Positions 3,911 through 17,422 of a stretch of DNA of 64,000 nucleotides are shown here, in pieces. Below the pieces are notes generated by a model, which had not been told where the DNA came from, ran no database searches, and worked only from the letters and a program-made list of their open reading frames with translations. Numbering within the stretch: the first letter of the stretch is position 1; every line of letters starts with the position of its first letter. A program made the translations under genes and the position numbers. Origin of the DNA: Candidatus Thorarchaeota archaeon SMTZ1-45 (GTDB lineage: Archaea; Asgardarchaeota; Thorarchaeia; Thorarchaeales; Thorarchaeaceae); assembly GCA_001563335.1 (NCBI GenBank), contig LRSL01000076.1, positions 23,225 to 87,224 on the forward strand, read 5' to 3'.

Positions 3911-4216
3911 TCACTGTTTGCCCTCAAGATTCTTGTCCTATAAAGAAGTCGCCTAAGTTGAGAAACATAGTGTATCTCGGAAGAACCGAGCTTCAAAGAT
4001 TAATAGAAGTGCCAGTCGAGTACTCGAGTTGACAGTGCTCCTCCTGTTAGTTTCGACTATCTCTCTCGGTCTGGCTAGTACATTGGAAAGTATCTCTAGG
4101 TCTAAGAAAACCCTTGTACAAGCGTTTTCCACGGAGCGATATCGAGGCGTGGCAGGTACCGTAAAGGTTACTTACAGTCAGGTGTGTGCAGACCTGAATG
4201 GTCGAGGTCAAAACAG

Positions 4217-6199
4217 ATGAGTGATTTCAAACTGGAGGCTCCGTTCAAACCCACTGGCGATCAACCTCAAGCTATACAAAAACTAGTGGAGGGTCTCGAG
4301 AGCGGACTCCAACATCAAACTCTTCTCGGAGTCACTGGATCTGGCAAGACATTCACCATGGCAAACGTCATTGAAGCATATAATATGCCCACACTCGTCA
4401 TTTCCCACAACAAGACCCTAGCTGCTCAATTGACCTCAGAATACAAACAATTCTTTCCTGATGCAGGAGTAGAGTACTTCGTCAGTTACTATGATTACTA
4501 CCAGCCTGAGGCCTATGTTCCCAGTAAGGACATGTACATAGAGAAGGAAACAGACATCAATCAGGAGATTGAGAGACTTCGCCATTCAGCAACTCATTCT
4601 TTGAGGTCTCGAAAAGATACTATTGTCGTGGCCTCAGTTTCCTGTATCTATGGTGTAGGAAACCCGAGTGAGTATGATTATTTCAGGATGTTTCTAGAGC
4701 GAGGAAACCAGATAGACCGGCGAGAGATCCTAGAACGCTTAGTGGCTATGCAATATGAGCGAAATGATATGGAGATCAAACCTGGTATTTTTCGGGTTCG
4801 TGGTGATGTGATTGATGTCTACCCTGCAGGCTCAGAGAATAGCATTAGAATTGAATTAGATGGAGATCGAGTTGATCGGCTCACTGTTTTGGAAGGACTG
4901 TCAGCTAAAAGACTGTATGAACCTAATTGGATTGAGTTGTTCCCAGCTAAACATCACATCGCGCAACATGAAACTATCATAAAAGCCCTTGAGCCAATTG
5001 AACAGGAGATGCAAGAACGTGTTGAGTGGTTCAAGAAACAGGGTAAGCTTGTGGAGGCTGACCGACTCAAGAGACGAACCATGTACGACATTGAGATGCT
5101 CAGAGAGATAGGGATGTGTTCGGGAATCGAGAACTATTCCCGATATATTGATGGACGTGTTGAGGGTGAGAAACCATACACCCTTCTTGATTACTTTCCT
5201 GATGACTTTCTGATGATTATTGATGAGAGCCATATGACGATCCCTCAGATTCGAGGTATGTTCAATGGTGACTTATCTCGAAAACAGAACTTGGTCGATT
5301 ATGGCTTCAGACTACCTTCTGCAATTGATAACAGACCACTGAAATTCCATGAATTCGAGAAGTACATGAAACATGTCATATACACAAGTGCAACTCCTGG
5401 TCCATATGAGAGTAGGAAGAGTCAACAGATTGTGGAACAGCTTCTCCGGCCTACAGGACTTCTTGATCCTGCAATCACAGTAAGACCAGTTGTGGGACAA
5501 GTGGACCACCTGCTAGGTGAGATCAACAAGACTGTTGATATGGGTGACCGTGTCCTTGTCACAACACTCACAAAGAAGACCTCTGAGATGTTGAGTGAGT
5601 ACCTTGTCGAGGCAGGAGTTAAGGCAAGATATCTACACTCAGATATCGGAACAGTCGAACGAATCGAGATAATACGTCAATTACGTCAAGGTAAGTTTGA
5701 TGTTCTCGTGGGAATCAATCTCCTACGGGAGGGATTGGATCTTCCTGAAGTGGGTCTTGTAGCAATTTTAGATGCAGACAAGGAAGGATTCCTTAGGACT
5801 GACTGGGCTCTCATTCAAACAATGGGCCGTGCTGCTCGGAATGTGAATGGCCGGGTCATCTTGTATGGGGACCATGTTTCAACAGCGATGCAGACAGCTA
5901 TTGACGAAACCAATCGTAGACGGGTATATCAGCTTCAGTATAATGAGGAGCATGGCATCGAACCTGAGTCGATAGTCAAGTCGATTCGGGATATAGCTGA
6001 AGGAATTAAGACGCCAGAGAAGACCACCCAGACGAGGCTTGATGACTTTGATCCATTCGAGGTCGATGAGTTAGCTGATTACATCATTGATCTTGAAGAG
6101 CAGATGAAGGAGGCTGCAAGAAATCTGGAGTTTGAAAAAGCCGCAAAACTTCGGGATCAGATTGCAGGTCTCCGAAAGAGAATCGAGGGAATGGAATAG
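4217..6199 (+). CDS. uvrB: Excinuclease ABC subunit B
   Basis: PTGDQP, GVTGSGKT, YFVSYYDYYQPEAY beta-hairpin, DESH, GINLLREGLDLPEV, GRAARN, C-terminal UVR domain (LEFEKAAKLRD). Start at ATG 4217. Confidence 0.98.
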   Translation: MSDFKLEAPFKPTGDQPQAIQKLVEGLESGLQHQTLLGVTGSGKTFTMANVIEAYNMPTLVISHNKTLAAQLTSEYKQFFPDAGVEYFVSYYDYYQPEAYVPSKDMYIEKETDINQEIERLRHSATHSLRSRKDTIVVASVSCIYGVGNPSEYDYFRMFLERGNQIDRREILERLVAMQYERNDMEIKPGIFRVRGDVIDVYPAGSENSIRIELDGDRVDRLTVLEGLSAKRLYEPNWIELFPAKHHIAQHETIIKALEPIEQEMQERVEWFKKQGKLVEADRLKRRTMYDIEMLREIGMCSGIENYSRYIDGRVEGEKPYTLLDYFPDDFLMIIDESHMTIPQIRGMFNGDLSRKQNLVDYGFRLPSAIDNRPLKFHEFEKYMKHVIYTSATPGPYESRKSQQIVEQLLRPTGLLDPAITVRPVVGQVDHLLGEINKTVDMGDRVLVTTLTKKTSEMLSEYLVEAGVKARYLHSDIGTVERIEIIRQLRQGKFDVLVGINLLREGLDLPEVGLVAILDADKEGFLRTDWALIQTMGRAARNVNGRVILYGDHVSTAMQTAIDETNRRRVYQLQYNEEHGIEPESIVKSIRDIAEGIKTPEKTTQTRLDDFDPFEVDELADYIIDLEEQMKEAARNLEFEKAAKLRDQIAGLRKRIEGME

Positions 6200-9144
6200 T
6201 GAATTCAGCAGCAGATAAGAACAATGGAGCCATTGATACTGAGGTAGATGGCCCTAGGTCTATCATTGTTATGGGTGCTGCTGAGCATAATCTGAAGCAT
6301 ATTGATGTCACAATTCCAAAGAACACACTCACTGTTGTCACCGGATTATCGGGATCTGGAAAGAGTTCACTTGTCTTTGATACGATCTACAGTGAGGGGC
6401 AGAGAAGGTTCGTGGAGTCTCTCTCTCCTTACGCACGTCAATTTCTGGGGATGCTTGAGAAACCCAAAGTTGATCTTATGACAGGTCTTTCACCGTCAAT
6501 CTCTATTGACCAGAAGAGCGTGAGTAGGAATCCTAGATCGAGTGTTGGAACAATCACAGAAATCTATGATTATCTTCGGCTCCTATATGCCAGGGTGGGA
6601 GAACCCCATTGTCCTCAGTGTAAGAAGAAAATAGAACCCCAGACATCTCAACAGATAGTTGACCGTATTCTAAATCTCAAGGAAGGTTCGCGTATCATAA
6701 TTCTAGCCCCCATCGTGAGAGGTAGAAAGGGAGAATATAGGAAAGAGTTTCGAGACCTCATCAAGAAGGGTTTTGTACGAGCTCGTGTCGATGGAAAGCT
6801 TACCGAACTTGAAGAGGGAATGTCACTCGACAGATACTTTGAGCACACCATTGAGGTCGTCATCGATAGAATCGCAGTGAAGGAGTCTGAACGAGGTCGC
6901 ATCTCAGAGGCTGTAGAGACCGCCCTTAACATGGCTGACAGGGTTGTCACGATTATAACACCTGAAGGAGATATCACACTTTCAGAGCAATTCGCTTGTG
7001 TAGAATGCGGCATTAGCCTTCCTGAGATGGAACCGCGTATTTTCAGTTGGAATACTCCCCAGGGCGCCTGCCCTCACTGTACTGGAATTGGTGTCATTCG
7101 TGAGTTCGATCCTGACTTATTCATCACAAACTCGGACCGTTCACTAAACAACGGTCTTTTCGAGCTGGATCAGTGGAAGATAAGACGTGTCTTTACCAAT
7201 AAGGTCGTGCAAAAGTATGGGTTTACCATGGACACCCCCTGGAAAGACATGACAAAGAAGCAGAAAGACCTCCTTCTCCATGGGTCTGGTAGCAGAAAGT
7301 TTGAGGCTACATGGGAGGGTGACAATCCAGAATTTGAGGTCCAATATAAGGGAACCTTCCAGAGACCCTTTGAGGGATGGATAGAACGCGCAAAGCGGCT
7401 CTACAAGACAACTAAATCGGACTATGGAAGACGTATCCTAGAGAAGTATATGTCGACGCAAACATGCCCTGTTTGCTTGGGTGGACGATTGAGACCTGAA
7501 TCAAAAGCTGTCACTTTTAATGATAAATCCATCACAGAGATTAACAATCTCTCAATCAAGGCTCTACGTGAGTTCTTCGAGAATGCTAAGATTGATCCGA
7601 GGCTCAAACCAGTAGCAGAACCCATTCTTCGCGAGATTATGGGACGTATTGGGTTCCTAGAGGACGTAGGGCTTGAGTACCTCACTCTCGATAGGTCTGC
7701 TCCCAGCTTGGCTGGTGGTGAAGCACAGAGAATTCGATTGGCTAGTCAAATTGGGTCGAATCTTGTTGGTGTGACCTATGTGTGTGACGAACCATCAATT
7801 GGTTTACACAGTCGCGACAATATACGACTCCTGAAGTCTTTGCTACGACTTAGAAACCTCGGAAACAATGTCCTCGTTGTGGAACATGATGAAGAAACTA
7901 TACGCACAGCAGACTATATCATCGATTTAGGACCAGGCGCAGGCTCAGAGGGGGGTGAGGTTGTAGTCACTGGAACTCTTGATGATGTTCTGAAATCGAA
8001 GAAGTCTATCACTGCGAGATACCTTAGAGGTGAAGAGAAGATACCCGTGCCTGAGCATCGAAGGCAACTGAATGGGCGGTTCATTGAGTTAAGAGGCTGC
8101 AAGCATAACAACCTCAAGAATCTGAATATTCGAATACCACTCGGGATGTTTATCGCAACAACTGGAGTTTCAGGGTCCGGCAAATCTTCCTTGATTGTGG
8201 AAACATTGCAGCGAGAACTTGCTCGACGATTCCACAATGCTGAAGCTAAGCCTGGCAAGTTTGATGAGATTCTAGGCATTGAACAATTGGACAAAGTCAT
8301 TGTCATTGATCAGAGTCCCATTGGAAGAACCCCGCGCTCTAACCCTGCCACCTACGTAGGTCTATGGTCTCCGTTAAGAGACCTATTTTCAAATCTTCCT
8401 GAATCTCTAATACGCGGATACAAACCAGGTCGATTCAGTTTCAATGTAAAAGGTGGCCGCTGTGAAACCTGCAAAGGTGCAGGTGTAGAAGTCATTGAGA
8501 TGCAGTTCTTGCCGCCAGTTCAGGTAACGTGCAGTGAGTGCAAAGGACGGCGTTACAACAGAGAAACTCTTCAAGTGCGATTCAAGGGAAAGAACATTGC
8601 TGATATTCTCGATATGCGAATCGATGAGGCTGTAAAGTTCTTCGAGGGTATTCCCTCAGTACATCGCAGGCTTGAGACCCTATGCGAGGTAGGCATGGGT
8701 TATGTAAAATTGGGACAACCCGCAACTACTCTATCAGGTGGTGAAGCCCAGCGTATCAAACTGAGCAAGTTCCTCTCAAGACCTGCAACAGGGCAGACAC
8801 TAATTCTGCTGGACGAACCCACAACAGGTTTGCACTTTGCAGACATCAAGAAGCTGTTAGAGGTTCTGCACCGGCTTGTGGATCTTGGAAACACAGTTCT
8901 CGTTATTGAACATCAATTGGATGTTGTAAAAACCGCGGATTGGATCATTGATCTTGGACCAGAGGGCGGAGATGATGGTGGTTATCTCGTTGCAGAAGGG
9001 ACTCCTGAAGATATTGTTTCATGTGATAGGTCCTATACTGGTCAATACCTCCGAGGATTACTAAAACCTGTGATTCCAAACAAAGTGTCCTCTATTAAAC
9101 AACCAGCGCCTCCAATTACTAACGAGGGGAGGTCTAAGAAATGA
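6199..9144 (+). CDS. uvrA: Excinuclease ABC subunit A, copy 1
   Basis: EHNLK, GLSGSGKS, EGQRRFVESLS, Zn-finger CxxC pairs, LAGGEAQRIRLA, DEPSIGLH, GVSGSGKS, PIGRTPRSNPATY, LSGGEAQR, DEPTTGLH. Start overlaps the uvrB stop. Confidence 0.97.
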   Translation: MNSAADKNNGAIDTEVDGPRSIIVMGAAEHNLKHIDVTIPKNTLTVVTGLSGSGKSSLVFDTIYSEGQRRFVESLSPYARQFLGMLEKPKVDLMTGLSPSISIDQKSVSRNPRSSVGTITEIYDYLRLLYARVGEPHCPQCKKKIEPQTSQQIVDRILNLKEGSRIIILAPIVRGRKGEYRKEFRDLIKKGFVRARVDGKLTELEEGMSLDRYFEHTIEVVIDRIAVKESERGRISEAVETALNMADRVVTIITPEGDITLSEQFACVECGISLPEMEPRIFSWNTPQGACPHCTGIGVIREFDPDLFITNSDRSLNNGLFELDQWKIRRVFTNKVVQKYGFTMDTPWKDMTKKQKDLLLHGSGSRKFEATWEGDNPEFEVQYKGTFQRPFEGWIERAKRLYKTTKSDYGRRILEKYMSTQTCPVCLGGRLRPESKAVTFNDKSITEINNLSIKALREFFENAKIDPRLKPVAEPILREIMGRIGFLEDVGLEYLTLDRSAPSLAGGEAQRIRLASQIGSNLVGVTYVCDEPSIGLHSRDNIRLLKSLLRLRNLGNNVLVVEHDEETIRTADYIIDLGPGAGSEGGEVVVTGTLDDVLKSKKSITARYLRGEEKIPVPEHRRQLNGRFIELRGCKHNNLKNLNIRIPLGMFIATTGVSGSGKSSLIVETLQRELARRFHNAEAKPGKFDEILGIEQLDKVIVIDQSPIGRTPRSNPATYVGLWSPLRDLFSNLPESLIRGYKPGRFSFNVKGGRCETCKGAGVEVIEMQFLPPVQVTCSECKGRRYNRETLQVRFKGKNIADILDMRIDEAVKFFEGIPSVHRRLETLCEVGMGYVKLGQPATTLSGGEAQRIKLSKFLSRPATGQTLILLDEPTTGLHFADIKKLLEVLHRLVDLGNTVLVIEHQLDVVKTADWIIDLGPEGGDDGGYLVAEGTPEDIVSCDRSYTGQYLRGLLKPVIPNKVSSIKQPAPPITNEGRSKK

Positions 9145-11999
9145 CAGGCTATATCAGTGTTCGTAAAGCTGAAGAACACAACCTCAAGTCAATTGATGTA
9201 GACATCCCGAGAGACCGCCTTGTAGTTGTAACCGGCCCAAGTGGGTCTGGGAAGTCCACCCTCGTCCTGGATACAATCTTTGCAGAGGGGCAGAGGAGGT
9301 ATGTTGAGAGTCTTAGCTCCTATGCTAGAAGATTTCTAGGTCGGCTCGATAAACCGAAGGTTGAGAAGATTACAGGTCTTCCTCCAGCTATTTCAATTGA
9401 ACAGAAGGGCAGAACAAAGAACCCCCGGTCAACAGTTTCAACAAGCACAGAGATTCATGACTATCTCAGGCTGCTCTATGCGAACATAGGAATTGCTCAT
9501 TGCGTGGAATGCGGTCTTCCTATGGAACAACTCACTGCTGAGTCTGCAGCACGACTTCTCCTTGATGAAAATGGTGGGCAACGAATTCACATCCTCGCAC
9601 CTGTCGTCTGCGGCGAGGTTGGAAAACATGAGGAATGCCTAGAAGGGCTTCACAAGAACGGATTTGTGCGTGTCCGTGTTGATGGAGAGATTATGGACAT
9701 CGACCAGGTCGATCTTGATGCCAGGAAGAAGCATGATATTGATGTTGTTGTTGACAGGCTTGAGTTGAATCAAAAGAATCGAGAGCGCTTGATTGGCTCA
9801 CTAGAAACCGCTCTCGAAACAGGTGATGGTAGAGCGATTATTTCACGAGAAGGCACAGATGACTTGACCTTTGCTGAGCAGTTGATGTGTCCAAAGTGCG
9901 GTATACAATATGAGAAGTTGGGTCCAAAGGCGTTCTCTTTCAACAGACCTGATGGCGCATGCCCTGTCTGCAATGGCCTTGGAGTGACAATGTCTATCGA
10001 TCCTGACCTCATAATTCCCGACAACGATATGACAATCCATGAGATTAGTCGACGTATCAATGCCGGAGAACGTTCTTGGTGGACTGAACGAATTGATGCA
10101 CTAGGCGAGCTTCTCGGATTCTCTATAGAACACCGATTTAGTGAGCTCGATGCAGCTCAAGCCGAAGCTCTTATCTGGGGGCGTCCTGAGTACACTCTCC
10201 ATTATATCCATCAGGGTGATGAGTCGACCTGGGAGATTACAAGAAGATGGTATGGTATTGTTCCATGGCTTGAACGAATGTTTGACCGAGGTAAGAGTAG
10301 TGAAAAAGCATACCAACGCTGGTGGGCGAATCGTATTGCGAACGAATTTTCTCGAAAGACTAACTGCGAGGCTTGCAATGGCAGAAAGCTCAAGCCTGAG
10401 AGTCTTGCTGTGACTGTTGCTGGTAAGTCAATTGACGAAATCGCATCCATGACCATTGAAGGAGCGGCTGAGTTCTTCAGGAACATCTCACTGACTGAAC
10501 GAGAGTTCAAGATAGCTGAACTTGTACTAAAGGAGATACGAGCACGTCTCAATTTTCTCCTTGCTGTTGGCCTTGACTACCTTAGTCTTGACAGAGCATC
10601 CATGACACTATCAGGTGGAGAGAGCCAAAGGATCCGACTGGCTACACAGATTGGCTCTGCTCTTACAGGAGTTCTATACTGTCTCGATGAACCTTCAATT
10701 GGGCTCCACCCCCGTGATATTGGCAAGCTCATTGAAACCTTCTATCACTTGAGGTCTCTTGGCAACACTGTGGTGGTCATTGAGCACGACAGAGACACAA
10801 TCACAGCAGCGGATCACCTCATCGACCTAGGTCCTCTTGCAGGAGTGAATGGCGGGCAACTTGTTGCTGAAGGCTCCCCGACGAAGGTCCTTGCTGATCC
10901 GAAATCCTTGACAGCTCAATATCTTGCTGGAACTAAGCAGATTCCAATACCTGAGAAAAGGCGTCAAGGGAATGGTCAGAAAATCATAGTTCATGGAGCA
11001 CGTGTTAATAATCTCAAGAATATCGATGTAGACTTCCCTCTTGGCACAATGATTTGTGTATCTGGAGTGTCAGGTGCAGGCAAGAGTTCCTTAACCTATG
11101 AAACCCTCTACAAAGCTTTAGCCCAGAAAATCAATAAGGCAAGCATGGTCCCCGGCGATCACGATACAATCGATGGTATTGATTACATTGATAGAATAAT
11201 CCTCGTAGACCAGTCACCCATAGGACGAACACCTCGTAGTAATCCTGCGACTTATACTAGGACCTTTGGTGAAATCCGAGAGCTTTTTGCAAAGATGCCT
11301 GAAGCGAAGAAACGAGGTTTCGGTCCTGGACGTTTCAGCTTCAACACAAGAGATGGTCGATGCGAAAAGTGCAAGGGCAGTGGAGTCCTCCAAGTAGAGA
11401 TGCACTTTATGTCAGATGTTTTCATGACCTGTGATGTCTGCAAGGGTGACCGCTTTGACAGAGAAACCCTGGAGGTGACATATAAAGGAAAGAACATCAC
11501 TCAGGTACTTGAACTGACAATTGATGAAGCTCTGGAGTTCTTTGGTGACATACCAAAGATTGCAGATCGACTCCAGACCTTGGTTGATGTTGGGCTCGGA
11601 TATCTCCAGCTTGGGCAACCCGCAACCACACTGTCAGGGGGAGAAGCACAACGAATGAAACTGGCTGCAGAACTCGCACGAAAAGCCACTGGAAACACAC
11701 TCTACATTATGGATGAGCCTTCCACTGGACTCTCAGCTTCAGATGTGCATGTTCTGTTGGGAGTTGTTAACCGTTTAGTCGATGCTGGCAATACGATTGT
11801 GATAGTCGAACACAACCTCGAGATTGTCAAGACTGCAGACTGGGTCATTGATCTGGGTCCTGATGGTGGCGATGGTGGAGGTGAAGTTGTAGCTCAAGGT
11901 CCTCCCGAAGCGATTAGTGAGGTTTGGAAATCATACACAGGTAACCATTTGCGAGCCGCACTTTTTGGTCCAAATGTTCGATATGGTTCTTTGAGCTAA
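9141..11999 (+). CDS. uvrA: Excinuclease ABC subunit A, copy 2
   Basis: Same full two-NBD architecture: GPSGSGKS, EGQRRYVESLS, LSGGESQR, DEPSIGLH, GVSGAGKS, PIGRTPRSNPATY, LSGGEAQR. ATGA overlap with copy 1. Confidence 0.97.
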   Translation: MTGYISVRKAEEHNLKSIDVDIPRDRLVVVTGPSGSGKSTLVLDTIFAEGQRRYVESLSSYARRFLGRLDKPKVEKITGLPPAISIEQKGRTKNPRSTVSTSTEIHDYLRLLYANIGIAHCVECGLPMEQLTAESAARLLLDENGGQRIHILAPVVCGEVGKHEECLEGLHKNGFVRVRVDGEIMDIDQVDLDARKKHDIDVVVDRLELNQKNRERLIGSLETALETGDGRAIISREGTDDLTFAEQLMCPKCGIQYEKLGPKAFSFNRPDGACPVCNGLGVTMSIDPDLIIPDNDMTIHEISRRINAGERSWWTERIDALGELLGFSIEHRFSELDAAQAEALIWGRPEYTLHYIHQGDESTWEITRRWYGIVPWLERMFDRGKSSEKAYQRWWANRIANEFSRKTNCEACNGRKLKPESLAVTVAGKSIDEIASMTIEGAAEFFRNISLTEREFKIAELVLKEIRARLNFLLAVGLDYLSLDRASMTLSGGESQRIRLATQIGSALTGVLYCLDEPSIGLHPRDIGKLIETFYHLRSLGNTVVVIEHDRDTITAADHLIDLGPLAGVNGGQLVAEGSPTKVLADPKSLTAQYLAGTKQIPIPEKRRQGNGQKIIVHGARVNNLKNIDVDFPLGTMICVSGVSGAGKSSLTYETLYKALAQKINKASMVPGDHDTIDGIDYIDRIILVDQSPIGRTPRSNPATYTRTFGEIRELFAKMPEAKKRGFGPGRFSFNTRDGRCEKCKGSGVLQVEMHFMSDVFMTCDVCKGDRFDRETLEVTYKGKNITQVLELTIDEALEFFGDIPKIADRLQTLVDVGLGYLQLGQPATTLSGGEAQRMKLAAELARKATGNTLYIMDEPSTGLSASDVHVLLGVVNRLVDAGNTIVIVEHNLEIVKTADWVIDLGPDGGDGGGEVVAQGPPEAISEVWKSYTGNHLRAALFGPNVRYGSLS

Positions 12000-13855
12000 T
12001 CTTGCTCTCTAATTTTGAAACGAATCATCTCTGCTACCATCACAAAAATCACTGCAGATGAAAATCCTACCACTAGTGTTGTTATCGGAGCGATAAGATT
12101 CATTTGTTCACCATTTGATGTAGTATTTTGGGTTATGACTGGATGGTCTGTTGTAAGCGGTTCAAAGTATGCAAACTCCGTGTTGGTTGTGAGCTGGTAA
12201 AACTCTCCAACCTCAAAGTCATGAAGTTCAAACGGACCTGATGTCACATGAGGTTCTAGTTCATTAAACACAGGGTTCCAAGTATTCCATTCATCATATC
12301 TAATGTTAGCTATAAAGATGTGCTTTGGTATGATATACTGGTAGGCAAAATGTGAGAAATGCCAGTACGACTCGGTGAAGAACTCTATTACAAACCTGTA
12401 TGGATTTGGCGCAAGGGCTGTTACGATGTTCCCCAATTTGTCAGCTGCAGGATTTCCATAAGCACCAGACTCAATGATGTAGGTCATAGTATAAGCCACA
12501 TCTTCTGCTGTCAAAGGCACCCCATCACTCCAGGTGGCATTCCTAATGATGTCGATGGTGAATCGAGTATGCCCTTCTCGTACTTGGGGATTATCTGAAT
12601 GAGTTTCTTTGAGCATCTTTTCAGCAATATAGGGATAGGGTGTCAAGTCCGGAGCATACGAGTATAGTGAAGGCCAGAGCTCGCAAAGTATGGAAGTTGA
12701 TGTCGGATTCGAAGTGACCCAGAAGTTGCTCTCTGCCCAATAAGAGGTGCCTATTTGAACAATACCTCCTCGGGTGCCATCAAGCTTGTGGATTTTCCTC
12801 AAAGTCCAGGGACCAGAGATTTGTCTCAAGAGGTCTGGAACATGACCTGTGAATCTATCGTTTCTATAAGCTTGCATGTATATGTTCTCATATACAACAA
12901 GTCGAGGTACATTGTAGTGCAATATTTTCTGCATCTCTAGTGCGGCTTCGTATACTTCTTCGTAGGTTGCACTGTATAGAAGCCTGTCCCGCAAGTTGTC
13001 GTAGGTTGTATTCCTGAAGTTACATTGATTCTTGCCACGAACACCAACTGACTCCCCCCAGAATTCATCCATCAGCCATTCAATATCATCATCATAAAAG
13101 CTATGTCCAAAAAAGACCATGTCGTAGGAGTAGCGGTATGAACCCCATGCGTCAATCCAACTGAAATCAACTTCATGTGCCCTCGAATCAATATGTAGTG
13201 ATTGAAGAGCTTCCACGCCTAACTGTGCTATTGGTCCTCCAAACCGAGACCCCCAATGGTAGTCTATTGAGATGTCGAATGCTGATCCTTCTGGAGTCAG
13301 TCTATATCCGGTTCCGGGGTCAATAGTGAAATTCAAGCTATCAAGAATCTGATTGCCAAGATCTGATTGATTCGTGTAGTAGTGCCATGCGAATTCATTC
13401 TCTGCACACCAAGTATTAACCTGCGGAACAAGAGAATCATGCTCAATTGAATAACCTTCAAACAAATCGGTGACTGCGGTCTTGTCAAAGGCATATGCAA
13501 ATGCACGTCTAAAACCACTAATATTCAATGGATACTTGGCGCAGTTTATAGTTATAGAACCATAACCATTTCTCAAATAGCTGTAAATGTCTATATCAGG
13601 ATCGTTATCTAATGAGGAATAGTAGTAGATTGGATCTATGTATCCAAGATTCATATCAATCGATCCAGTCAGGAGCTCAGACACAATCCTCTCTTGACCA
13701 AGTATTTTATAGATTATATTGTTCACATATGGTCCATTGTTCAAGTTACTAAATTGTTCAGACAAAGCGACTGAGAGATTAGGATATAGCGTCGATGATG
13801 ACACAAGCACAATGAGCGACAATGGGATGACCCACTGCTTTCTCAACTTTCTCAC
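11996..13855 (-). CDS. Family 5 (peptide/nickel) ABC substrate-binding protein, circularly permuted, C-terminal TM anchor
   Basis: FRRAFAYAFDK, WSDGVPLTAEDVAYT and TSGPFEL motifs. N-terminal signal peptide and C-terminal hydrophobic helix. Confidence 0.88.
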   Translation of the reverse strand: MRKLRKQWVIPLSLIVLVSSSTLYPNLSVALSEQFSNLNNGPYVNNIIYKILGQERIVSELLTGSIDMNLGYIDPIYYYSSLDNDPDIDIYSYLRNGYGSITINCAKYPLNISGFRRAFAYAFDKTAVTDLFEGYSIEHDSLVPQVNTWCAENEFAWHYYTNQSDLGNQILDSLNFTIDPGTGYRLTPEGSAFDISIDYHWGSRFGGPIAQLGVEALQSLHIDSRAHEVDFSWIDAWGSYRYSYDMVFFGHSFYDDDIEWLMDEFWGESVGVRGKNQCNFRNTTYDNLRDRLLYSATYEEVYEAALEMQKILHYNVPRLVVYENIYMQAYRNDRFTGHVPDLLRQISGPWTLRKIHKLDGTRGGIVQIGTSYWAESNFWVTSNPTSTSILCELWPSLYSYAPDLTPYPYIAEKMLKETHSDNPQVREGHTRFTIDIIRNATWSDGVPLTAEDVAYTMTYIIESGAYGNPAADKLGNIVTALAPNPYRFVIEFFTESYWHFSHFAYQYIIPKHIFIANIRYDEWNTWNPVFNELEPHVTSGPFELHDFEVGEFYQLTTNTEFAYFEPLTTDHPVITQNTTSNGEQMNLIAPITTLVVGFSSAVIFVMVAEMIRFKIREQD

Positions 13856-15610: not shown

Positions 15611-17422
15611 ATGTCTGATCTCAAGTCCTTGGTCGAAGACCTTCCAGATTCTCCCGGAGTCTACCTCTGGAAGAACGAGAAAGGCAAGATTCTATACATT
15701 GGAAAGGCCAAGTTCCTGAGAAAGCGTGTTGGGTCATATATGAGAAAGACAGGTCTTTATCGTCGGATATGGGATATGATGCAAGAAGCACGAGACCTTG
15801 AAACTATTCTCACAAACACTGAACGAGAAGCACTAGTCCTTGAACAGACCCTCATCAAGAAGCACCAACCAAAGTACAACATTGCTTTGAAAGATGATAG
15901 ACGACATGCATGGGTTAGAGTTGATCTCTCTAGACCAATTCCAACATTTGAGATAACTCGCGAAGCACAGAAAGACGGTGCGAATTATTACGGGCCTTAT
16001 GGTAGTACGAAACGACTTGAGCGATTCTTGGACACTATTAGAAAATCCATACCCATCGCCATGTGTAAAGAGCCTGCGAAGGTAAAACGCGAATGCATGG
16101 ATTATCATCTGGACCGGTGCTCTGGACCATGCAAGGAACATGTACCGTTAGCTGAATATCGCTCCCTAGTTGAACAGATGTGTTACTATCTCGAAGGCCG
16201 CCCTGCGGACCTTATCAAGATCCTTAGGACTGAGATGAGTAGCGCATCCGAAGAAATGAACTTTGAGAAGGCTGCTGAACTCCGTGACAGATTGGCAGAC
16301 CTTGAGATTCTCATGAGTAGGCAAAAAGTCGTTGAATTTGAAGGTGCAAATAGAGATGTCCTTGGAATCTCTCGGACAGAACAGGCAGCTCTTATTGAGA
16401 TGTTGATTGTTCGAAATGGAAGATTGATTGGGCATGATAATTTCTATTTCGAAGTGGATCTTGATACGAAAGATACAGAGGTGCTAACAGCTTTTGTTGA
16501 ACAATTCTACTTTACAATTCCACGATTGCCAGAGGAAATAGTTCTTCCATGTGAAATTCCAGAGGCAAAGCAACTCAGTCTTTGGTTAAGTGAAGCAAAT
16601 GGACATCCTGTTAGAATTACTGTTGCTGAAGATGACAGAGGACAAGATCTCGTTGATATGGCCAATAAGAATGCGCATAGAGCTCTCCGAAAAATGTTAA
16701 TTATTGGAGATAGTGAGGATGAGATAGTCCATGAAGGAGTCAAGGAGCTGAAAGAGGCTCTAGGCTTGACTCAAGCTCCTATGCGAATTGAAGGATTTGA
16801 CATAGCCAACATTCAAGGAACCGATCCAACTGGTTCATGCGTCGTCTTTAAGAATGGTGAGCCCTACAATAAACGATATCGTATGTTTAAGGTTCGAGTG
16901 AAAGAAACTCCTGATGATTATACAATGATGCGTGAGGTTGTATACCGTCGCTATTATGGTGTACTTGAGCGACGTGATGTACTTCCGGATTTGATACTAA
17001 TTGATGGAGGAAAAGGACAGCTCAAAATGGCTTTGGAAGCTCTCGAAGAACTTGGTCTTGATTATCTACCAGTAGTAGCGCTTGCGAAGAGGGAGGAGAT
17101 ATTATACACTCGTGATAATACAGAAGGAATTCATCTCGATGATGGTTCTGAAGGACTACATCTTGTCCAGCGAATTCGGGACGAAGCACATCGCTTTGCA
17201 CAGAAATATCATCACAAACTAAGAGAGAAAAGATTCACTGGATCTATCCTTGAAGAAGCTCCTGGAATTGGACCGAAAAGAAGATCTGCACTACTTCAAG
17301 AGTTTGGAAGTTTTGAAAAGGTAAAGGAAGCCACTGTCGAACAGCTTGCCCAAGTAGATGGGATGTCAGAAAAGGCGGCTCGTACCCTTAGAGAATGGCT
17401 CGATAATGATGAGGGAAATTGA
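15611..17422 (+). CDS. uvrC: Excinuclease ABC subunit C
   Basis: GIY-YIG (PGVYLW...LYIGKAK), Cys-rich CMDYHLDRCSGPC, UVR (MNFEKAAELRD), RNase H-like RIEGFDIA / LIDGGKGQL, RIRDEAHRFA, HhH (PGIGPKRR). Confidence 0.97.
   Translation: MSDLKSLVEDLPDSPGVYLWKNEKGKILYIGKAKFLRKRVGSYMRKTGLYRRIWDMMQEARDLETILTNTEREALVLEQTLIKKHQPKYNIALKDDRRHAWVRVDLSRPIPTFEITREAQKDGANYYGPYGSTKRLERFLDTIRKSIPIAMCKEPAKVKRECMDYHLDRCSGPCKEHVPLAEYRSLVEQMCYYLEGRPADLIKILRTEMSSASEEMNFEKAAELRDRLADLEILMSRQKVVEFEGANRDVLGISRTEQAALIEMLIVRNGRLIGHDNFYFEVDLDTKDTEVLTAFVEQFYFTIPRLPEEIVLPCEIPEAKQLSLWLSEANGHPVRITVAEDDRGQDLVDMANKNAHRALRKMLIIGDSEDEIVHEGVKELKEALGLTQAPMRIEGFDIANIQGTDPTGSCVVFKNGEPYNKRYRMFKVRVKETPDDYTMMREVVYRRYYGVLERRDVLPDLILIDGGKGQLKMALEALEELGLDYLPVVALAKREEILYTRDNTEGIHLDDGSEGLHLVQRIRDEAHRFAQKYHHKLREKRFTGSILEEAPGIGPKRRSALLQEFGSFEKVKEATVEQLAQVDGMSEKAARTLREWLDNDEGN

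Follow-up and report, generated by a model that had tools for sequence, protein, structure and literature searches.

UvrA, the damage sensor of the UvrABC system, is regarded as a symmetric homodimer, and symmetric mutants have had to be used in order to tell the roles of the four ATPase sites and the two wedges apart, according to the sections cited here of two studies (PMC6486640; PMC12796330). Asgard archaea carry this bacterial system, as stated in a passage of a review (PMC12993045). A literature search at the level of search results returned no report on tandem class I UvrAs, on a UvrA heterodimer or on a Thorarchaeal UvrA. The DNA analysed here, a window of 64,000 nucleotides (nt) from Candidatus Thorarchaeota archaeon SMTZ1-45, contains uvrB followed directly by two different UvrA genes, uvrA1 and uvrA2, whose products are called A1 and A2 in the following. 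It represents a variant of the known UvrABC system with paired class I UvrAs and is useful in that the asymmetry of UvrA subunits becomes directly testable. Judged from the sequences, an asymmetric A1-A2 heterodimer is the most likely working form of the damage sensor, with a probability of roughly 0.45. To our knowledge, no UvrA heterodimer has been demonstrated so far.

Both proteins align end to end with the canonical class I homodimers of G. stearothermophilus (2r6f, 3uwx), T. maritima (3pih) and M. tuberculosis (3zqj) and with Ct-UvrA (9gxk), and they have in common with them the two ABC and three zinc modules, both the UvrB-binding and the insertion domain, and the majority of the interface residues. 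However, the Thorarchaeal locus has two non-identical genes instead of one. In addition, the canonical Gln65, Ser82 and the His after Walker B-II are replaced in A2 by Arg, Pro and Ser, respectively, and A1 carries Phe instead of Tyr55 and Ala instead of the Ser of signature I (residues numbered as in Ct-UvrA). A second UvrA-family gene in one genome is also a property of the class II paralogs, such as D. radiodurans UvrA2 (2vf7), DrrC and Ecm16 (7sh1). In the class IIa proteins the UvrB-binding domain is missing along with the first zinc finger, and Ecm16 functions independently of UvrB, UvrC and UvrD, as reported in the part cited of PMC9328131. Unlike class II proteins, A2 has retained these two features and is encoded in the uvrB operon, and the class II structures match only part of it (2vf7, residues 263-941; 7sh1, residues 382-938).

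The fused double UvrAs (NF001885/PRK00635, 1809 positions) resemble the Thorarchaeal pair in combining two different class I units, and the 1:1 ratio fixed by the fusion is proposed for the pair as well. A one-sided Arg65 and a residue other than Ser at position 82 occur in both. In contrast to the fusions, the pair consists of two polypeptides which are both complete, whereas in many fusions one half lacks a domain, and the fusion gene of Heimdallarchaeota is, unlike the pair, not adjacent to uvrB within the 16.5 kb compared. MutS is a homodimer in bacteria, whereas eukaryotes have MSH2-MSH6. The logic proposed here is the same in another protein family: a symmetric ABC-type sensor gives way to two diverged paralogs with unequal DNA contacts.

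The three genes uvrB (4217-6199), uvrA1 (6199-9144) and uvrA2 (9141-11999) are arranged head to tail on the plus strand and are all intact according to the list of open reading frames (ORFs) and their translations. The frame of uvrB is open from 4184 with an ATG at 4217 preceded by GAGGT at 4204-4208; its product of 660 amino acids (aa) reaches 1021.7 bits with NCBIfam NF003673 (cut-off 743) in a profile search and comprises the Pfam domains UvrB_inter, UvrB, Helicase_C and UVR. The last G of its TAG stop codon (6197-6199) is the first base of the GTG start codon of uvrA1 at 6199, so that the two genes have 1 nt in common (TAGTG, 6197-6201, plus strand). The second gene codes for A1, the more canonical copy with 981 aa, and its TGA stop codon (9142-9144) overlaps the ATG at 9141 (ATGA, 9141-9144, plus strand) of the gene for A2, the divergent copy with 952 aa. 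Purine-rich, Shine-Dalgarno-like runs of the GAGG type are found 8-10 nt upstream of all three starts. The original prediction, which was made from the letters of this stretch, had linked the three genes by stop/start overlaps and had described both UvrAs as intact proteins with nucleotide-binding domains, zinc fingers and a region for UvrB binding; the former is confirmed by direct reading of the two junctions and the latter by profiles and translations.

Both copies can be classified from their sequences as class I UvrAs, since they pass the curated cut-off of the UvrA equivalog NF001503 (1389.4 bits for A1 and 1316.1 for A2; cut-off 1147) and keep the UvrB-binding and the insertion domain. 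With TIGR00630 they score 1324.7 and 1264.1 bits, respectively (cut-off 729.8). The UvrB-binding domain (PF17760, UvrA_inter) covers aa 148-254 of A1 (6640-6960, plus strand, E 2.5e-37) and aa 135-236 of A2 (9543-9848, plus strand, E 1.8e-29), and the insertion or DNA-binding domain (PF17755, UvrA_DNA-bind) covers aa 304-416 of A1 (7108-7446, plus strand, E 2.8e-18) and aa 287-387 of A2 (9999-10301, plus strand, E 1.5e-13). Two ABC modules with the Walker A Lys, the Walker B Glu and the H-loop His are present in A1, in A2 and in their orthologs. Furthermore, three zinc modules with six CxxC pairs are visible in both translations, and in an alignment of 53 rows each of their twelve cysteines is either invariant or conserved to 90% or more. 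A2 aligns with the solved UvrA 9gxk over residues 3-940 and has lost no domain. The lack of the UvrB-binding domain and of the first zinc finger, which defines class II, was found neither in A1 nor in A2. Nor do they form a fused double UvrA: the genes are kept apart by a stop codon (9142-9144), and the corresponding model NF001885 gives 684 and 672 bits for A1 and A2 (cut-off 3054). In the public annotation both genes are merely designated 'excinuclease ABC subunit UvrA'.

A function of A2 outside excision repair, similar to class II and for example by displacing DNA-bound drugs without UvrB, is very improbable. Second UvrA paralogs of bacteria are often of this kind, as far as the cited part of PMC9328131 goes. 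However, A2 retains a UvrB-binding domain which is as conserved as that of A1, its gene is a member of the uvrB operon and the protein passes the equivalog cut-off.

The amino acid sequences of A1 and A2 are identical at 49% of 947 residues. As stated in the original prediction, they diverge strongly in the insertion domain, which is the least similar region with 25% identity, whereas the ATPase parts reach 50-68%; the highest similarity is found in the ATP-binding parts (0.54-0.68). The bacterial UvrAs in the loci compared match A1 better than A2.

In a survey of the family, 86 genomes were searched and 66 of them gave a match; genes with at least 64% identity were counted by hand as A2-type. 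Such a gene exists in 61 genomes, in 53 of which it is immediately preceded on its contig by an A1-type gene; in the remaining eight the genes are found on other contigs or at contig ends. The A1-A2 pair is represented in all 16 genera of the family. Among 76 loci compared with A2, 42 contain Thorarchaeal-type genes, and 37 of these show the order uvrB-A1-A2 on one contig, the other five being interrupted by contig ends. In these 37 loci the distance from A1 to A2 is mostly −4 (27 loci), in addition −1 (two) and +14 (two), and six larger negative values are a product of the longest-ORF start rule; that from uvrB to A1 is −4 in 21 and −1 in ten. The gene for UvrC is located 7 nt to 5.3 kb downstream of uvrA2 in the relatives. 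A genome of the sister family in the same order (G019) also has uvrB-A1-A2, with A2 broken across two contig ends. More than 100 clusters of A2 orthologs exist at 66-94% identity; all of the named ones carry Asgard labels, in nearly all cases Thorarchaeota, the labels Sifarchaeia, Hermodarchaeota, Lokiarchaeota and Promethearchaeota being given to single clusters each. Below 66% the identity drops straight to about 50% for the next matches, which are fused or bacterial proteins. A second UvrA gene beside the first was seen in none of the bacterial loci compared. From its distribution, the pair is old and conserved.

Compared with the nearest relative (L043), dN/dS is 0.024 for uvrB, 0.034 for A1 and 0.036 for A2, at a dS of 0.9-1.4, which is near saturation. 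At greater distances dN of A1 and A2 is 0.084 and 0.083 or 0.109 and 0.093, and that of uvrC is higher with 0.20. The mean identity among orthologs is alike for both copies in all eight regions, for example 0.75 (A1) and 0.73 (A2) in the UvrB-binding domain. These values indicate an equally strong purifying selection on A1 and A2 (dN/dS about 0.03) and the decay of neither copy. Loss of the pair in relatives and relaxed selection on one copy had been named in the original prediction as arguments against a heterodimer. The pair is kept in the family as well as in the sister family, and relaxed selection was looked for and is seen in neither copy, so that both arguments fail.

A recent duplication or a mere dosage effect was considered as an explanation of the pair and rejected, as the identity of A1 and A2 (49%) is not above that of A1 to bacterial UvrAs (50-53%) and both copies exist already in the sister family. 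A binning artefact was likewise discarded, as two records with chromosome titles carry the pair and so do many long contigs (L054, L064).

A few loci deviate from the common arrangement. One relative (L096, 255-7241) has a 2.1 kb insert between uvrB and uvrA1, resulting in a distance of 2109 nt, the sole case among the 37 loci. In another (G004; L025, 10912-12674, identical to L047, 1352-3114) uvrB is broken up into a pair of ORFs (266 and 321 aa) that overlap, which reflects either a frameshift or an assembly error. The matches to A1 and A2 in G150 (C4:344153-349437) contain one in-frame TGA each, and A2 of G229 (C14:41557-44406) one in-frame TAG; these could be pseudogenes, errors or cases of recoding.

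The residues at the dimer axis of Ct-UvrA are described in the cited sections of PMC12796330. In the basal state the contacts are R54-L507, S58-I85, Y55-Y55, Y55 with P83, A84 and I85, F66-F66, G80-M508, L81-L507, P83-L507 and P83-V510. In the AMPPNP state they comprise Y55-Y55, Y55-S82, Y55-P83, S58-P83, A63-L67 and F66-F66, although Y55 and F66 lack modelled side chains in this state according to the authors (PMC12796330). The wedge that enters the DNA is formed by Y62, Q65 and F66 (PMC12796330). Both copies were mapped on these positions by the distance from the Walker A Lys in a gap-free stretch, and the alignment with 9gxk agrees. A1 and A2 have the same residue at R54, S58, Y62, F66, G80, L81, P83, I85, L507 and V510. 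Thus ten of 13 interface positions are the same, while 55, 82 and 508 differ, and the sequences contain no obstacle to mixed dimers.

Differences fixed between the paralogs exist at positions 55, 65 and 82. Phe71 of A1 (6409-6411, plus strand) corresponds to Tyr55, which forms the Tyr55-Tyr55' contact on the dimer axis. Phe is found here in all 37 A1 sequences and Tyr in all 33 A2 sequences and all 33 bacterial UvrAs. However, 14 of 24 other Asgard UvrAs of single length also have Phe55, which consequently needs no partner. Arg64 of A2 (9330-9332, plus strand) corresponds to Gln65 of the wedge and is Arg in 33/33 A2, as opposed to Gln in 37/37 A1 and in 32 of the 33 bacterial UvrAs. Pro81 of A2 (9381-9383, plus strand) takes the place of Ser82, which, with ATP bound, is in contact with the opposite subunit's Tyr55; Pro is again present in 33/33 A2 and Ser in 37/37 A1, and the bacterial proteins have Ser (31) or Thr (2). 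Neither Arg65 nor Pro82 occurs in any of 57 single UvrAs (33 bacterial, 5 and 19 from Asgards). A degenerate DNA pattern for the Arg65 form had no match in 401 Bacillota genomes, as compared with matches in 54 of 61 for the Gln form; the Arg65 pattern does detect A2 in this genome, in G090 and in G019.

Neither copy has the complete canonical set of wedge and axis residues, as A1 keeps the wedge but carries Phe55, and A2 has Arg65 and Pro82. This bears on the designation as a typical homodimer and not on the membership in the family. In G019, A2 already possesses Arg65 and Pro82 while A1 is still canonical, so the A2 changes Q65R and S82P are older than those of A1. A compensation across the subunits, with Tyr55Phe of A1 facing Ser82Pro of A2, was tried as an explanation and rejected: G019 combines Pro82 in A2 with Tyr55 in A1, and Phe55 also exists in single UvrAs and, among fusions, mostly in the C half.

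The original prediction had pointed out two motif deviations, namely LAGGE instead of LSGGE in signature I of A1 and DEPSTGLS instead of DEPTTGLH in A2. Ala505 of A1 (7711-7713, plus strand) is the equivalent of Ser490, the catalytic serine of the distal ATPase site according to PMC12796330. Ala is present in 35 of 37 A1, whereas all 33 A2 and 32 of 33 bacterial UvrAs have Ser (the remaining one Ala). It is absent from A1 of G019. Three fused N halves have it, as do the single UvrAs of G029 and G020, both of them Asgard genomes. Ser865 of A2 (11733-11735, plus strand) replaces the His after Walker B-II (D-loop II); A2 has Ser in 31 and Ala in two of 33 sequences, as compared with His in 37/37 A1 and 33/33 bacterial UvrAs. 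The same Ser exists in 11 of 24 other Asgard UvrAs of single length (10/19 in one set, 1/5 in another); the case in the smaller set belongs to G026, a genome which is 99% complete and gave one UvrA match. Following the domain scheme of PMC6486640 and the roles given in PMC12796330, as far as both are cited here, the two changes, one at Ser490 of signature I and the other in ATP-binding domain II, belong to the distal-site module. Both deviations are real and fixed in the lineage. As signs of a heterodimer, however, they are unusable, because they also occur in stand-alone Asgard UvrAs, and the wedge and axis changes specific to A2 are the more telling marker.

The change from His to Ser after Walker B-II is widespread in the other Asgard UvrAs (the set of 19 with 10 cases; loci L119-L128 of family f9, L130, L133 and L134). 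In many UvrAs of f9 a regular expression for LSGGE matched only once.

Residues like those of A2 were found in the fused double UvrAs. The best 150 representatives matched by A2 are almost all 1,300-2,300 residues long, and 106 of them have exactly four Walker A motifs. Two full-length halves are kept in 30 of these 106, while in 76 a domain is lost in one half. Among the fusions are a protein of 1915 aa from Chloroflexota and one of 1916 aa from Heimdallarchaeota, the latter also in G022, and a further Asgard family (f26) has a fused form of 1957 aa. Residues were counted in the 45 fusions in which both N-terminal segments could be aligned. At position 65, 26 fusions have Gln in both halves, 15 show a one-sided Arg and two a basic residue on both sides; Ser in both halves at position 82 is limited to six. 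At position 55 Tyr is combined with Phe in either order in 23, in 19 of these with Phe in the C half. In comparison with single UvrAs, the marks of A2 are therefore typical of units which are known to stand beside a second, different UvrA unit.

These distributions bear on the possibility that two separate homodimers, A1-A1 and A2-A2, both bind UvrB and feed the same UvrB and UvrC, but act on different lesion classes or DNA contexts, co-transcription merely ensuring the presence of both. Each copy has every domain, the Walker A Lys, the Walker B Glu, the H-loop His and the zinc motifs, and the parts that touch the DNA differ most, as seen for the insertion domain and for Gln or Arg in the wedge. 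Moreover, additional UvrAs are known to have taken on roles of their own (class II UvrA, DrrC and Ecm16; PMC9328131, as far as cited here), and most of the paralog-specific motif changes exist in stand-alone Asgard UvrAs, too. Nevertheless, two homodimers, the main alternative, are less likely than the heterodimer. Arg65 and Pro82 are absent from the sampled singles, and Arg65 from the scanned Bacillota, but both are present in fused halves, mostly one-sided. In addition, a sorting mechanism would be needed in view of the nearly identical interface and the coupled synthesis, and none is evident in the sequences.

The phylogeny was inferred in five trees, in which some rows were dropped for speed and long or compositionally odd rows were flagged in every case. 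In all five, A1 together with A1 of G019 joins the N halves of one set of fusions (Chloroflexota and Heimdallarchaeota), and the upstream protein thereby corresponds to the N half of the fusion. The support for this group is 97 in a FastTree of 85 rows, 88 in an IQ-TREE analysis of 62 rows (LG+C20, quick PMSF), 95 in a FastTree of 57 rows and 70 in a quick PMSF tree of the same size; no support values were computed for a maximum likelihood tree of 39 rows (LG+F+G4). The position of A2 varies. It is the sister of the C halves in the tree of 62 rows (91) and a split in the FastTree of 57 rows (94) puts it together with them, but it is the sister of a single UvrA of f9 in the tree of 39 rows and of two singles of f22 in the PMSF tree of 57 rows. 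A link between A2 and the C halves is therefore given in two of five trees only, and A2 belongs to the C-half lineage hypothetically.

The original prediction had asked for phylogenetic evidence on a duplication within the lineage as opposed to two transfers. In an approximately unbiased (AU) test with 39 rows, p is 0.70 for the free tree, 0.44 for A2 with the C halves and 0.37 for the N with the C halves. For A1 and A2 as one clade it is 0.065 (delta lnL 25.1), which disfavours a duplication within the lineage, yet does not reject it at 0.05. Altogether the sequences make a recent duplication of this kind unlikely.

A random dimerisation to an unsorted mixture of A1-A1, A1-A2 and A2-A2, in which the second gene is kept for a wider range of substrates, would agree with the interface positions that both copies share and with the equal constraint on them. 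It leaves unexplained, however, why only one paralog carries two fixed changes at the wedge and interface which the sampled singles lack, and why relatives of A1 form the N half of fusions with a fixed 1:1 ratio. Such a mixture is improbable.

The window contains a Thorarchaeal operon for nucleotide excision repair, in which two different class I UvrA genes, translated consecutively directly behind uvrB, specify the damage sensor. The favoured A1-A2 heterodimer would be the unfused counterpart of the natural double UvrA proteins of 1,900 residues. A1 would contribute the canonical wedge Tyr-Gln-Phe and A2 the modified wedge Tyr-Arg-Phe together with Pro at the adjacent contact across the subunits. 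Because each subunit has its own UvrB-binding domain, the complex would, like the homodimer, load two UvrB, provided that both copies bind UvrB. The wedges meet at the axis (F66-F66', Y55-Y55'), so in a homodimer of A2 two Arg65 would become neighbours, while a pair of Gln and Arg would form an asymmetric probe. An effect of the Arg wedge on the probing of lesions may be assumed.

A heterodimer would fit the coupled synthesis, the long-kept linkage, the equal constraint and an interface which is the same except on or next to the two-fold axis. The best support is indirect and comes from the changes of A2 in the wedge at the dimer axis, which were otherwise found in fused doubles only, and from the affinity of A1 to the N halves. 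Several observations point in the other direction. The conserved interface would permit homodimers equally well, and the Phe55 and signature-I Ala of A1 and the D-loop Ser of A2 exist in stand-alone Asgard UvrAs, so that a partner is not required. The 57 singles and one scanned phylum which lack the marks of A2 are a small and non-random sample. In fusions Phe55 tends to the C half, opposite to its place in the upstream Thorarchaeal copy, so that a consistent compensation between the subunits is not seen. The placement of A2 with the C halves is unstable, as A2 moves to the singles of f9 and f22, and the AU test separates no hypothesis at 0.05. Shared derived residues are few (five for A2 and the fused C halves, four for A1 and A2, three for A1 and the fused N halves), and their count was discarded as a means of placing A2 since it gives no signal. 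Finally, the source genome holds further UvrA paralogs, and a proliferation of paralogs in the lineage need not mean pairing.

Contig C8 of the source genome (9902-14725, minus strand), outside the window, has a frame of 1643 residues with two UvrA units, the first without model positions 284-403 (insertion domain) and the second without 127-248 (UvrB-binding domain). Similar double-UvrA frames of 1633-1652 aa occur in G002, G004, G005, G013 and G018 (loci L003-L006). A third full-length UvrA-like gene of 944-974 aa, 42-44% identical to A1 and A2, is present in the relatives G018, G004, G013 and G002 (L034, 5015-7849; L035, 4849-7683; L036, 15892-18816; L037, 4803-7727) and was not found in the source genome. 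Its wedge is replaced (Thr62, Thr or Ser65, Met66), it shows one recognisable LSGGE and it has a very long branch in the tree. In G002 and G018 this gene exists without a complete A1-A2 pair.

A more far-reaching proposal is possible, though held with less confidence than the heterodimer itself: UvrA may be obligately heteromeric in Thorarchaeia and, in fused form, in Heimdallarchaeia, Chloroflexota and others, with an alpha subunit (A1 or N half) and a beta subunit (A2 or C half). Alpha would then provide the canonical wedge and beta the Arg wedge together with a changed axis contact. Neither the ATPase sites, four in number, nor the two DNA probes would be equivalent any longer, and the tandem genes, overlapping by ATGA, would represent the same invention in unfused form. 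Single subunits could be studied without engineering in a natural pair of which one member deviates at the wedge, at an axis contact and near an ATPase motif. Furthermore, such a pair would give the fused double UvrAs, a large and unstudied family, a link to a testable model, and it documents an elaboration of the bacterial-type excision system in Asgards beyond mere borrowing. If the two copies form separate homodimers instead, they are a tidy but ordinary case of paralog specialisation.

The source assembly of 3.5 Mb is 87.7% complete with 5.8% contamination, and the window lies on its contig C76. The window encodes, besides UvrB, also UvrC (15611-17422, plus strand, 603 aa) and thus both proteins by which a UvrABC system is recognised. 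The uvrC gene is located 3.6 kb downstream of uvrA2; its product reaches 536.2 bits with TIGR00194 (cut-off 285) in the profile search and comprises the Pfam domains GIY-YIG and UVR, two UvrC RNase H domains and HhH. Between uvrA2 and uvrC lie genes for a fragment of a solute-binding protein and an O-methyltransferase, both on the minus strand, and for a TPR protein on the plus strand. An ORF of 619 aa (11996-13855, minus strand) converges on uvrA2, and the stop codons of the two overlap by 4 nt; its match to the SBP_bac_5 solute-binding family is limited to the last part of the profile (positions 145-363 of 368). Within 4001-12000 of the window the operon has a G+C content of 0.45-0.48, as compared with 0.39-0.41 in the flanks on both sides, an excess that is compatible with a foreign origin and with strong coding constraint alike.

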